This document shows, one piece after another, positions 18,401 to 48,400 of a stretch of DNA of 64,000 nucleotides. Each line of letters opens with the position of its first letter. Within the stretch, counting starts at the first letter, position 1. A program made the position numbers and the translations under genes. The DNA is from Tubiluchus corallicola (taxonomy: Eukaryota > Animalia > Priapulida), in contig JAQGDQ010000022.1 of assembly GCA_030141605.1 (NCBI GenBank), positions 744,001-808,000 on the forward strand, in the 5' to 3' direction. Under the pieces are notes generated by a model. The model saw only the letters and a list, made by a program, of their open reading frames with translations. It ran no database searches and had not been told where the DNA came from.

Positions 18401-21400
18401 ATGTTCACCTTTAAGTCGTCTGGGCCAGTTGCACATAGGTATAAAAGTTGACAGTAAACGTCTGGAATTTCTTTGATAAAACAGTACCTTGACAGTTTTG
18501 ACTTGGTGTTTATTTCGCTGGACATTGTTACCAACATTGCTGAACTTCTTTGGATCGTTTTTCAACGTGACCTGGACATTTGTATCATCATCCATGTAGT
18601 TGAACACCAAAACCCGTATGTGGACATCTTCACCGCGGACAACCGAATAAGGAAGGTCTAACTGGACGAAGAATGGACGCTTAACTGTAATCTGAAAAGC
18701 AATAGCAGTGAAAAGTGTTATTAAATGCTAAGCTTCTACATAATTATATTTAAGGACAATTATTTCTGATTTATTAAATGTGGGTGTCACACACTAAACA
18801 AGCTCCAGGAACTTAGGCATGCAGCAAAGTTAAGTCATCACCTAAGTCACAATTGTTTTTTTTGGAAATTATTTGCTTAACAAAAAATGACCTTACTGTA
18901 AGTAAGATAAGATTTGAGCTTAGGACGTCTGAGTTACAAACCCACTGTCTGTGATTTTTATCATACATGGTCCTTCCCTTATTGCGGCTTTATAGTCTTA
19001 ATTAAGATCGCTACATAATAATATAAAACTTTGCACATGTCTGCAGGCTAAGCGGGTGTGTTTCTTAGCATTATTATTGTGCGCTGAAATAATATTAGGA
19101 AAATACAATATACCTTCGCAGTTTCATCTCCTACTCCAAGGCCATACATTTTATGCATGGAAAATGCGCTAGCAACCCAAGAAGTAATGGTGTCTGGCAC
19201 GTTTGTATTAATGTCTGCTTTACCGTTGGCTCTTTAAAAAAAGTTGAATTTAGTTAATTTAACATAGCTCAACAATCCGTAAATTATCCAAACTCACAAT
19301 ACGAATGAAACAAAGATACGGCTAACAAACTTTACAGAGTGCAAAAAAGAGTAAGTTTTTCAGTCATTTAAATTAAAGTCTTTAGTATTGTGTATAACTT
19401 ATTAATCATCAATTTTATGCGCCTTTTGTATGATGCATGACAACTTATAAATATGATGAAAGCTAAGTATTTACGACGCATACATAAGTCTTATAGGTAC
19501 GCATAACAATATACTGGAAGAACTAAAAATAGGTTTTATTAAAATTTAATAATAATAACAATTGTAACAATTAGTGCATGTACATCTTACCAGTATGAGA
19601 AATCACTACTGTTATATTTAGAAAGAAATGAAAATTTAAATATATTGTGCTATGTGAAAATTAAATATGCATTGTTAAAAGTAAAGTTAGTAGTTTGTTA
19701 GTAGATTAGCTTCTGTTAATGTCAGCAACACATGGCGCAATGCCGATGGCACTTTTATCTAAAAGTTTAAAAAAGCAAAACACCATAGTAACCTCCAGTG
19801 AAATTTCCACCGTGGCATTTATTTTGTCTTAATGTAAAATGTAAAAATCTATTTTGTGTGTTGAGCTATGTAGGCCTGTGGAGTATTTGCTTAGAATGTA
19901 CATGTTCTACCTGACGAGATTTCTATGAACACAATAAATGTGCAAGTTGAAGAATGGTTAGCTTGAGCAGTAGAGCTTGAGTATATAAAATCATTGACAA
20001 TTGTTAGAAAAATACAATGGAGCCAATATGGAACCTCGCAGAACTGTATTTCATTACAACAAAGTTACCCTGCAGTCGTGTTTATCCAAAGCCAACTTTC
20101 AGGAAAATCGACCCTTGTCTTTTGTTCTAATATTTTATTGGGCGTGGCAGTGCCCGGAGGCGACGCAGCAGCAAAGACCGTGGCAACAGATTCGTCTTCG
20201 AATGCAACCCCTTCAGGATAGGCATAGTAATCATAATCATCTTGCGTGCGTACTGTAATAAGTACATTTCACTATGAGCTTAACACAATTAATAAAACAC
20301 AATTGATGGATCAGTGATTACGTTTTACTAATACCTGCTTACCATTTGCAAATGAAACAAAAGTTTAAACTTCTCATTTGCCGCGGTTTTTCTAATGAGC
20401 TGTTTGAGAAAAAAATTCTGAAATGAATGTAGTTATTTCATCTAATCGGGCGGTCTGAATATCTACTGCGCCAGGTACTCTACACTTTCTACAATTAGCA
20501 AGTTCATCGTTTTTAGGAGGAAATAATACCAAAATTGCGCGTAACTCCATTTAGATGGGGAAAATCATTAGGCCTATTGCCAAACAAGTACTGTGTTATT
20601 TCACAGGCCGACTATTTCCCCTTTTTTTAGAAATCTCTTCTCATAGCAATCTTAGTTCAGCACAATGCTTTTCAGTGAAGCCAGTAGCTGCATGAAACTA
20701 AGCTAAGTTTTTTTCTATTCCCCAGCATCAGTTGAACCAGGAGTTTTTGCGGTTTTTGTTAGTTCCTCACTTCTTGTCATCTTATCGAATTTTGTTTTGT
20801 GCTTTTCTTGCAGTTCTTTCTTGCATTAACACCGCCCATGTGTCGTCACACATCCAAAGCCAACAATGCCTTTTTAACATAATATATTTGTTTTAAATGA
20901 TTAGTCACCTGACTATCAAAAATTTGCACAAAAGCGTATGCATAAATCATATCAATCATACGTTTTACATCAATTACATTTCTGTAACATGCTCTCATGC
21001 AAATTATTGTCTCGTAAAAAATTACATTCGCTTTAAAGCCAAAAATGTTATTGGCTTTGTAATTGTCATTACAATGTATAAAGACACACAAAAGAATTGA
21101 TGTTTTAAAAGAAATTATTTAGACAGTTTTTACAACTTATGATCCAAAAATGTAAAAATATTGCGATCGTGACTTCTACAAATTCCCCAAACTATCGCTC
21201 TGACCTCGTGATTGTCACCACGGCCCCAAGAATACAGCTGGCTGGAGGATAATCCCTCGATATTGTCCTCAATGTAGGCATTATTTATATAAATAATAGT
21301 ATACATTTGGAACATACTGTGCTATTTCTGTGAAACAAATGCCAGCATCTACAAAACTCTTAAGAAACTTGTTGACATCCAGTGACATGCGAAATGGTTA

Positions 21401-45400: not shown

Positions 45401-48400
45401 TAGCAAATAAAACATTGCTGAATGCTGATTAAAGATACAGCACCATGTTACACTTGGAGTATCGGGAATAAAGCTCAACTGAATGAATGTTCAGTGACCA
45501 CTTTTAGGTGTTTCGTGGCACGGCTTCTAGAAATTTGACTGTGACTTTATCAGGGACGTAATAAAAAATTATGACCCTTGAATTTTCCTCTTGGTCATAT
45601 TAGGCGAAGCACGCTTTGGGGAAATTAAATGCTTTTACTCACTTGAATGCTTTCCTTTGTGAAGGTTTTAAATTTAAAATGCCCAGTTTTAATAGCAAGC
45701 ATTTTTGCTAATCGTGGTTTCAGATTAAGGTCCTATACCTTTCAATACATGTAGTGATCCAGATGGAGCTAATCTCAAGGAAGAAGAGCCCACTGACCAC
45801 AAAAAAACAAAACTGGGAAGAGATCAAATTTCTGGACGAAAACAGTAAAGCAGCTACTGTTTTTTTAGTGAACGTTAAATGATGCGTTAGCAGACTGGTG
45901 CCTGCTTGGTTAACTGTGCTGAACAGTTGAGCATGTCAAGTTCATAAGAGTTGAACAGAGTAACTTTTTAATTAACATGTCAACAAATTTGATTGATTTT
46001 TTAAGCACGGAAGTGTTATGGTGTTATAATGAATTCTCAAGAATAGATGTTACACGAATTAATTCAAAGTACAGATGCATCTACAGGACACGGAGGAGAG
46101 TAGAGTGGTACAGAATGTATTTTTCAAGTTCCATTTCCTTTTTATATTAGCAGAAAGAATACGCTTATATCGAATTCTCACCCCACTGTAGTATTAATCC
46201 ATAGCCAAGATTCTGGAAAATCTTTGCGGACTTTTGGTATGGGGGCCAGAGAGCTTTGCGTGGAATGTTTTGTTTGAATCTCATGCCTGTTGAAACCACC
46301 GCTAAGTCCTAAGGTACCCCCACCAGTGCGATATTGTATTTTAGATTGTATAAAATCTTCTGAAAGAAATCAAGTCACTTATCAGTTCGGAAAATTCCAC
46401 TTCATGGAGCTAAAGCGTGGAACAGCTAGAGTTGTATTTATAGTTGCATATCATTTATCCAGCATGGCAATATAGAAAAGAAACAACAAGATGCTGACAC
46501 ACAGGCAGCAATATTGAAGATATTGCTACTAAAGATCTGAAGATAATGCCAGCATAAGCTCTCAGGATCTCTTTAATTAAGAAGTAAAAATTATTAATAC
46601 CCAACTATAACGACACAAAAATTGGCTGCCGTCCATTGAAACTGCGAAGCGTGGCTACGCACGCTTTAATTTGGTAGAGCAATGTGCCCAAATAAGCGAA
46701 TCAGTAAATTTGAGCAAAAATTCTATATTTAGAGCTGCAAGCTTTTAACACAGCAAAGTAAGGCAACTTTAGCGCTGGTTCTTTCTAGACCATTTCACTC
46801 CTTTAATGAATTGAGTCATTGGTCTACCCATTTTTACTACCTGCTAGCTATATCAACTTTCTTTGCACTGTGTCACGAAAAACGCTCTCTCTGGTCGCCC
46901 CATGAAAAATGCTTGATCAGATACACAAGACACTACTACAAACTACTGTTGGCCATAACACATAACTATGCTCTTGCTGGTTATTTCTTTTCGGTCCGTA
47001 CAAAATAAGTACAGACCGAGGACGGTTTCTAAAAGTGCTGATCTTTTGATACAACATCTGCCAAGCACTTACAGAAAAGCCAAGACAGGCCCTGTACACG
47101 TTGTGAGAACATTTACAGTTTGTCCGATTCAAAAAAGCCAGAATATCTTCTAGACATTTAATTAATTGTAAATTCCTTGATTTGATGATGTCGATGAACA
47201 ATCAAATGAGAAAACGTATGAAGTCATCAAGATTCATTTACTTGTTGGAACTTTTTTCCATCAAAAAGCATGTAAACAGAGTGCACAATAGAAGAGGCAA
47301 ATCTCACAGTCGTTTCCCTTTGATAATTCACCATTTTAGATTAAACAAAAGCTATTCATACCTCCATACACGTAGGTATCAGATAAGACAACTAGTTTAG
47401 CTTCCTCGAAGGTTTCCCATGCATTACCGCTGCTGTACCACAGCCATGGCCACCAGAAAGACGAACGCTTCTTTCTGTCTAAGATGATAGGCCCACCACT
47501 AGCATAATAGCCATTCCTTCCAGAACCATAAGCATCATCAAAGCCATAACCCTTCATGTCATCAAGAACCTGCAAATCACCGTCACACTTAGACAGTTAG
47601 TACTGTTATCTTACTATCTAAGATAGTTAGTACTTGGTATGTTATCTAACTATCTAAATGAAAAAGTAAAGCAGAAGCAATGGACCTGTAATTTGTGCTT
47701 TGTGTGTTCTTAAATTTAGAAATTTGGTTTTGCAATTTCATTTCTAATAGTCATTGTGTAACCTAATTTGATTGAATGACTGATTGATTAATTCTACTTT
47801 TATTTCAGACTAGAAAGTCTATATGAAATACAACACATAACATTAGTGAAATTTAAATTGGCTTAATGAAAATCTAATTACGAAAATGAAAATCTAATTA
47901 CGAATTGCGCACAGAGGTGTATATATATATGCCAGCACACGATTATAGGACTATAATTACATTTGCCCGATTATCAGTTAATATCGTATATACGTATATA
48001 TACATATATATATAATACATATATATAATGGGTGCATATATAACTGACGAGGCTACTGTCCGACGGCTTATGAATGGGAACATGCCGGGAGCAGTGCCAG
48101 TAACTGTTAGATAGCCCGTTAAACACTGGGTGTTATAGTCTTATTTAGACTACGCAGGACGGCCATTAATACCCGCCAAGTGCGCTTTCCCGGACCTATA
48201 CACCCAAATTTTGTAGAAAACTGCACAAGCAACCTCGAGGAAGACTCGATTTGCACAACTGTTTGGGCACGTTGGGAAAAGCTAAGCACACTCCCAGAAA
48301 GAGGACGAAATGGTCTACAAGGCACTGGAGTTTCACTAGGAGAGGTGTATACTGGATAAAACGGGAGGGGTGCATTTTGAAGTTCTTTCTCAACCTTCTA

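Follow-up and report, generated by a model that had tools for sequence, protein, structure and literature searches.

Arrays of alternative exons in thioester-containing proteins (TEPs) have been described in several animals. In BgTEP2 of the snail Biomphalaria glabrata, 12 mutually exclusive tandem exons (the exon 22 cluster) extend over 30 kb and all of them are found in transcriptomes (PMC7016707; this and the other papers are cited from excerpts). The same source gives six alternative exons for scallop CfTEP, five isoforms for fly Tep2 and six variants for shrimp A2M; five Tep2 isoforms are likewise given in PMC5489563, and five mutually exclusive exons for TepII in PMC6071210. Here we analyse a stretch of 64,000 nucleotides from the priapulid Tubiluchus corallicola (assembly GCA_030141605.1, contig JAQGDQ010000022.1, positions 744,001 to 808,000; hereafter the window), in which a CD109-like TEP gene carries ten intact variable (V) exons that are, with high probability, mutually exclusive bait exons. 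With tandem homologous exons, one constitutive exon pair, a single-inclusion frame and the known boundaries, the array is of the BgTEP2/CfTEP/Tep2 kind. Its size lies near the top of the known range, not above it, the largest published array found being that of BgTEP2. The initial annotation of this DNA named alternative bait exons in fly Tep2, tick alpha-2-macroglobulins and a scallop TEP (the fly and scallop cases are both in PMC7016707), but its picture of a handful of variants elsewhere and an unusually large repertoire here has to be given up in view of the 12 BgTEP2 exons and of nine distinct variable segments among the retrieved isoform proteins of one gene of the abalone Haliotis cracherodii. 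Among the literature matches listed, in which subscription journals are largely uncovered, there was no description of a priapulid TEP.

BgTEP2 resembles the priapulid array in its tandem exclusive exons with a variable 5′ part and a conserved 3′ end. In the part of Table S4 consulted, 11 of its 12 listed exon lengths are 3n+1 and the twelfth is 3n+1 by its coordinates, and the phase-2 exon end lies, judged by eye, at the 13th residue from the conserved F, which matches the priapulid exons. It differs as a gastropod gene for a secreted iTEP with a C-terminal cysteine stretch and 12 variants seen in transcriptomes, whereas the priapulid gene has a predicted GPI-like tail (glycosylphosphatidylinositol), ten intact exons plus four remnants, and is known from DNA alone. 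For CfTEP (Azumapecten/Chlamys farreri TEP-B to -F) five variants were retrieved. These and the abalone CD109-like sets show the same landmarks and become constant again 12–13 residues from the F of FPETW (boundaries read from proteins, not from genomic DNA), but they have a cysteine-stretch end without hydrophobic tail and form a separate molluscan clade in the tree. The Drosophila Tep2 exon 5 cluster and its dipteran orthologs also provide alternative exons for a hypervariable bait-like region; they differ in encoding a secreted protein, in a spacing between FPETW and the constant part that is not uniform among fly isoforms, and in the smaller number of exons in D. melanogaster.

The array of variable exons and its host gene

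The gene occupies 62174–9427 on the minus strand with 33 exons per transcript (17 + one V + 15). The homolog-guided model, in which all modelled junctions are GT-AG, yields proteins of 1536–1561 aa; exon 1 (62174–62107, signal-peptide-like, among six candidates) and the last exon (9527–9427, GPI-signal-like) were our own choices, as were the V exon acceptors among several in-frame AGs. According to tblastn the gene is colinear with homologs, and Pfam matches to A2M_BRD, A2M, TED_complement and A2M_recep were above cut-off in 8 of the 13 constitutive pieces scanned. The ten intact V exons, each with an AG acceptor and a GT donor, lie between the constitutive exons 47362–47569 and 19114–19231. 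The exons and the residues of the thioester site are as follows (X1 denotes sequencing contigs that may come from the source sample).

47362–47569, minus strand: constitutive exon 17, ending in phase 1, holding RKKR (47476–47465)
46182–46359, minus strand: V1, intact, 178 nt, AG/GT, in-frame
44831–45041, minus strand: V2, intact, 211 nt, AG/GT, in-frame
44018–44264, minus strand: V3, intact, 247 nt, AG/GT, acidic and S/T-rich; one X1 contig covers the exon and both intron flanks
42654–42870, minus strand: V4, intact, 217 nt, AG/GT; one X1 contig covers the exon and both intron flanks
40969–41185, minus strand: V5, intact, 217 nt, AG/GT, in-frame, FTESW variant
30054–30237, minus strand: V6, intact, 184 nt, AG/GT, in-frame
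27121–27307, minus strand: V7, intact, 187 nt, AG/GT, in-frame
25462–25687, minus strand: V8, intact, 226 nt, AG/GT, in-frame, four cysteines, FPETWIW
22868–23039, minus strand: V9, intact, 172 nt, AG/GT, in-frame
20069–20252, minus strand: V10, intact, 184 nt, AG/GT, in-frame
19114–19231, minus strand: constitutive exon after the array, entry phase 2, Pfam A2M
15844–15858, minus strand: thioester motif GCGEQ, intact, residues 987–991 of the V1 model
14393–14395, minus strand: His1102, aligned with the thioester-domain His of human CD109 and A2ML1

A six-frame search of the window located 11 copies of the E(S/T)W(L/I)W segment, exclusively on the minus strand between 46213 and 20100; the corresponding DNA pattern has 11 matches against 0.01 expected, a number reached in none of 100 shuffles. 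All ten V exons enter in phase 1, exit in phase 2 and measure 3n+1 (172–247 nt). Their variable parts (41–66 aa) are only 13–44% identical in pairs (median 23%), whereas the 15-residue tails share 53–93% (median 73%), with the consensus R-x-x-F-(P/T)-E-(S/T)-W and a pN/pS (nonsynonymous to synonymous) ratio of 0.25 at near-saturated pS. No Pfam match was obtained for any of the ten. The positions first given for the intact exons hold, each being the last exon base before the GT donor on the minus strand. A count of ten intact and four broken copies stands for the intact ones; the four remnants lie at three loci and the motif segment is broken three times, not four. The tail proposed as R-x-x-F-P-E-(S/T)-W applies to nine V exons, V5 having FTESW. 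The claim that the other TEP exons are single-copy is borne out by the full gene model, which gave no non-self match within the window. Searching the array by tblastn with 249 query proteins (1138 high-scoring segment pairs) returned only the V exons, two broken loci and one weak match (E 0.018, near 25754–25915), and no other TEP exon. As a separate observation, an N-x-S/T sequon directly follows the W-x-W motif in nine of the ten tails, V8 being the exception.

With MG/A2M, TED and receptor-binding domains in order, the GCGEQ motif and the R-x-x-F plug, the protein belongs to the A2M superfamily, and in sequence comparison it falls within the iTEP/CD109 branch, its resemblance to CD109-like proteins exceeding that to A2M or C3. 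The named top homologs are all CD109-like or TEP. The thioester exon matches best a CD109-like protein of Priapulus caudatus (P0001, 66%; next 56%) and, among solved structures, human CD109 (91 bits; A2M 66, TEP1 45); exon 17 has no match in the PDB. Over 1042 aa the full model is 60% identical to P0001, the next protein in that comparison reaching 34%. A FastTree phylogeny of 39 chosen rows out of 240, from which A2M and C3 outgroups were left out, recovers the model and P0001 as sisters (support 100). P0001 has a V-type segment between identical boundaries, but it is a truncated model with a single such segment; the test of whether this segment is orthologous to V4 did not reach significance (uncorrected p=0.03 in 10 tests). 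Exon 17 was found in P0001 only among 14 transcript-derived candidate proteins, and a search of the representative protein set with it returned three repetitive, unrelated proteins. A second CD109-like protein of P. caudatus, P0214 (674 aa), has its own bait-like segment and is not sister to the gene.

His1102 predicts reaction with hydroxyl besides amine groups, as such a histidine is held to imply in PMC9156758. RKKR at residue 669 is a presumed furin-type site. The modelled C-terminus consists of small residues, a polar spacer and a hydrophobic end (15-residue mean hydropathy up to 2.0), a pattern that suggests GPI anchoring. By inspection the model offers no room or cysteines for C345C, anaphylatoxin or LDLa domains. 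Exon 10000–10128 (minus strand) encodes a Glu/Pro-rich stalk where a cysteine tail is usual, and read-through of its donor runs through a hydrophobic stretch into a CT microsatellite, so that an alternative C-terminus is possible.

Bait position and probable exclusive splicing

The function of the V exons is suggested by their position. The alignment of P0001 with human CD109 extends to residue 660 and resumes at 774, at the CD109 sequence PHVRKHFPETW; by position, the V-type segment thus corresponds to the unmodelled bait region of CD109, as the initial annotation had supposed in calling the variable segment the bait. In human CD109, Asp649–His689 are unmodelled and cleavage exposes the thioester (PMC12927315). 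The A2M bait can be replaced wholesale and acts via cleavage, by which a plug whose R732 and F735 are conserved is drawn from its channel (PMC9352918). R and F of the R-x-x-F plug are invariant in all ten V tails. Bait position and the invariant R/F pair together suggest that each V exon encodes the bait, the plug and the first strand after the plug. In analogy to A2M and CD109, the variable part would be exposed and the R-x-x-F plug would sit in the central channel; a cut anywhere in the bait would release the plug and expose the GCGEQ thioester, as expected for an A2M-type protein, and the thioester, with the aligned histidine, might then attach to the protease or to a surface close by. Which proteases trigger the protein would depend on the bait, and the V baits (2–6 K+R, net charge −8 to +5) presumably answer different ones. 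The four cysteines in the variable part of V8 are a further observation: a disulfide loop could render cuts inside it non-triggering, as found for loops engineered into the A2M bait (PMC9352918).

Structurally, human CD109 (8s3o, 9fx2) shares with the priapulid protein the thioester, the histidine and the bait position, its GPI-type tail has a putative counterpart there, and it is the best solved-structure match. Human CD109 is not known to have more than a single bait exon. It also differs by a furin site before MG8 that serves its release (PMC12927315), whereas the priapulid RKKR lies upstream of the bait.

One exon per mRNA would also be compatible with a binding, glycosylation or tissue-specific module in place of a bait, perhaps in a non-immune role. 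The acidic, S/T-rich V3 (25 of the 66 residues in its variable part are S/T, net charge −8) and the cysteines of V8 would suit such a module, as would the sex- and tissue-specific isoforms of CfTEP (PMC7016707) and a preprint that ascribes a glial role to a worm TEP; we nevertheless regard it as unlikely, since the segment sits at the bait position, the A2M bait is replaceable and works through cleavage, and each of the ten V exons has basic residues and aromatic or hydrophobic ones, their numbers varying between exons.

That the bait exons are used one at a time is indicated by the reading frame. All ten single-V models give an open reading frame, skipping of every V exon leads to a stop at residue 739, and none of 496 multi-V combinations tested is open (0/45 pairs, 0/120 triples, 0/210 quadruples, 0/120 sevens, 0/1 ten), because every V exon after the first enters in the wrong phase. 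For the combinations tested, this also answers an objection raised in general terms in PMC6071210, namely that decay is unable to keep clusters of over three exons in check. Relative to the 31 constitutive donors, those of the V exons are weaker (5.7 vs 7.1 bits, p=0.043). Three other arrangements were rejected: concatenation of V exons in one mRNA by the frame, steric exclusion by V introns of 566–10731 nt, and U2/U12 incompatibility by the GT-AG borders of all introns. Exactly one V exon per mRNA would give ten isoforms with a shared scaffold and a bait that alone differs. Exclusivity would probably be maintained by frame, nonsense-mediated decay and slightly weak donors, with RNA pairing as a speculative addition.

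Several points weigh against this reading. Exclusive splicing and the use of all ten exons are predictions from the DNA; a run thought to be RNA (X2) contributed seven records, on repeats only. The p-value for the donors is borderline and comes from a pair of tests, the V acceptors do not differ from the constitutive ones (p=0.32), and on a small matrix the V5 donor (2.6 bits), the V3 acceptor (2.0) and the V10 acceptor (−1.6) score low. On the protein side, the modelled C-terminus lacks the cysteine stretch of iTEPs and no basic cluster precedes MG8, so that the release mechanism of CD109 is not directly transferable; with both features missing the protein is called CD109-like, not CD109 proper. 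An immune function is assumed from relatives. In view of the frame, the conservation and the close precedent, mutually exclusive bait exons nevertheless remain a highly likely interpretation. Of the proposal that one gene yields at least ten membrane-anchored bait isoforms, the single gene, the alternative bait exons and, by frame, about ten isoforms can be kept, while the membrane anchoring and the differing protease triggers stay predictions.

History of the array and neighbouring features

The remnants and one mobile element within the array are listed below.

32421–32705, minus strand: broken chimeric exon, an out-of-frame fusion of a V8-like 5′ half (32705–32561, 87% to V8) and a V4-like 3′ part (32560–32421)
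about 28908–29000, minus strand: broken V4-like remnant, found with a hidden Markov model of exon ends and blastn
21554–21790, minus strand: broken V8-like remnant, found in the same way
33884–40855, plus strand: BEL/Pao long terminal repeat (LTR) retrotransposon between V5 and the chimera, with 528 bp LTRs of 99.2% identity and a 5-bp target duplication

The downstream intron flanks retain traces of common origin, with scores of 50–61 for V4 and two remnants, 56 for V5/V6/V7, 43 for V8 and the last remnant, and 16–35 for other pairs. The order V4, V5, remnants, V6, remnant, V7, V8 agrees with threefold copying of one block. Growth of the array by local tandem duplication and decay would accordingly have left V4-like copies that died and V5-like copies that became new baits, while two exons fused into a dead chimera, a course of events that fits the sequences. 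In V5/V6/V7 the variable parts are 65–78% identical and the introns 68–78% (aligned bases); the three differ by numerous indels but keep their frame, unlike the remnants, which are frameshifted.

These data bear on the possibility that the array is real but few of its exons are in use, the others being young or fading duplicates. Copy death is documented by the four remnants, a recent LTR element lies within the array, three V splice sites score low, and in BgCD109 four of eight predicted variants appear in transcriptomes (PMC7016707). All ten exons, however, keep AG/GT, frame and R-x-x-F plug at only 13–44% identity of their variable parts, and divergence among V5/V6/V7 equals that of their introns, an age by which one would expect unused copies to have decayed as the remnants did; we therefore consider restricted use quite improbable and prefer an array of ten usable baits. 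That the assembly joined paralogous TEP genes or haplotypes into a mosaic can practically be dismissed: although none of the listed sequencing contigs over 30000–49999 bridges two V exons, the array contains no other TEP exon, the constitutive exons are single-copy, the copies are far too divergent to be alleles, the nested intron homology fits local duplication, and the X1 contigs carry V3 and V4 with both intron flanks at 1 and 6 differences.

Other features were noted in and around the gene. The BEL/Pao element shows Pao peptidase, integrase zinc-binding and DUF5641 matches and a weak SAP-like match in its first open reading frame, and its coding region is interrupted. An exact 170-bp tandem duplication (23893–24231) is present in the V8–V9 intron and a 76-bp one at 42381–42532. 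At about 16900–18460 (minus strand) the TEP intron after exon 18691–18488 contains a reverse transcriptase fragment like that of a long interspersed nuclear element, in frame with read-through of that exon and internally duplicated in tandem. An intronless open reading frame for an SLC6 sodium:neurotransmitter symporter (3403–5868, minus strand, about 820 aa) lies downstream of the TEP gene; its product ends in a long acidic tail, and it is possibly a retrogene.

A candidate pairing element after V2 and the meaning of the array

Competing RNA pairings are known to mask splice sites in fly PGRP-LC (PMC6191721) and to balance exon choice in Dscam1 (PMC8791459). A description of RNA pairing in a TEP array was not among the literature matches listed (titles and abstract starts; subscription journals largely uncovered). 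In the priapulid gene one candidate was found by computed pairing.

44807–44829, minus strand: candidate for RNA pairing, situated where the intron after V2 begins, with complementarity to the V3–V9 acceptors

In an inverted-repeat scan the element is complementary to the V5 acceptor in 18 of 20 bases. Its computed pairing amounts to −14 to −25 kcal/mol with the V3–V9 acceptors and to −10 to −12 with those of V1, V2 and V10; its minimum was reached in none of 300 shuffles, and five of the seven V3–V9 pairings exceed its best on the 31 constitutive acceptors (−17.8). The element ranks first among 41 donors and first among 3523 windows (−18.6; next separate site −15.2), the best windows elsewhere reaching −14.5 in the rest of the gene (4099 windows), −14.3 outside the gene (2658) and −14.6 to −16.6 in nine shuffles. 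Scored against all ten acceptors, the element keeps its first rank, yet only with −15.5 against −14.4. Some considerations speak against the element: V3–V9 were selected after the hit was known, the acceptors are paralogous, the element is partly the complement of a generic 3′ splice site, and one constitutive donor pairs equally strongly with the V5 acceptor, the intron start after exon 10678–10516 (10487–10516, minus strand) reaching −25.5 kcal/mol with it and −21.9 with the V6 acceptor, probably by chance. Apart from V2, pairing between V donors and V acceptors is generally weak (13 of 45 pairs at or below −10 kcal/mol, 11.8 expected). The V donors have no common partner (best −15.0; −14.3 to −16.0 in four shuffles), nor have the V exon tails, whose top matches are the V exons themselves (shuffles −15.8 to −17.8).

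We thus regard the element as a lead, a candidate derived from computed pairing in one genome. If functional, it would hide the V2 donor together with the paired acceptor, thereby blocking V-to-V joining and damping use of V2 as an early exon of the array. Dscam1 likewise has tandem duplicated exons of which one enters each mRNA, and competing RNA pairing might be a control common to both; Dscam docking sites, however, activate the paired exon, while the post-V2 element would cover both splice sites. Dscam1 also has four clusters and 38,016 combinations (PMC8791459), whereas only one cluster of ten was found here, all other exons being single-copy in the window; “Dscam-like”, as the initial annotation put it, is thus an overstatement. 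Its further expectation that annotation collapses such arrays agrees with the assembly annotation BglaB1, which predicts 1 of the 12 variable BgTEP2 exons (PMC7016707), and with the single P. caudatus model found, but not with RefSeq, where fly and abalone isoforms carry numbers as high as X13–X14.

In the priapulid, the snail, the abalone and the scallop the arrays share the codon at which they end, which may point to an ancestral protostome cassette that was multiplied and turned over. We tentatively combine both ideas in one proposal, whose joint truth we consider doubtful: that the first 24 intron bases after V2 and any one V3–V9 3′ splice site form a splice-masking switch, and that the bait exon goes back, as a cassette with a history of more than 500 million years, to the ancestor of protostomes.

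The arrangement itself was already known; new are the lineage, the traceable birth-and-death history and the candidate V2 RNA element. If the inferred splicing holds, a priapulid, from an early-branching ecdysozoan lineage, joins the animals with bait-diversifying exclusive TEP exons, and the exon boundary that it has in common with molluscs points to an old cassette. The locus appears to retain its own history in a triplicated block, dead V4-like copies, three new baits and a dead chimera. The V2 element, if working, would be an unusual means of enforcing exclusive splicing. Finally, ten natural baits on one scaffold would offer a clear-cut way to test whether variation in the bait broadens the sensing of proteases.

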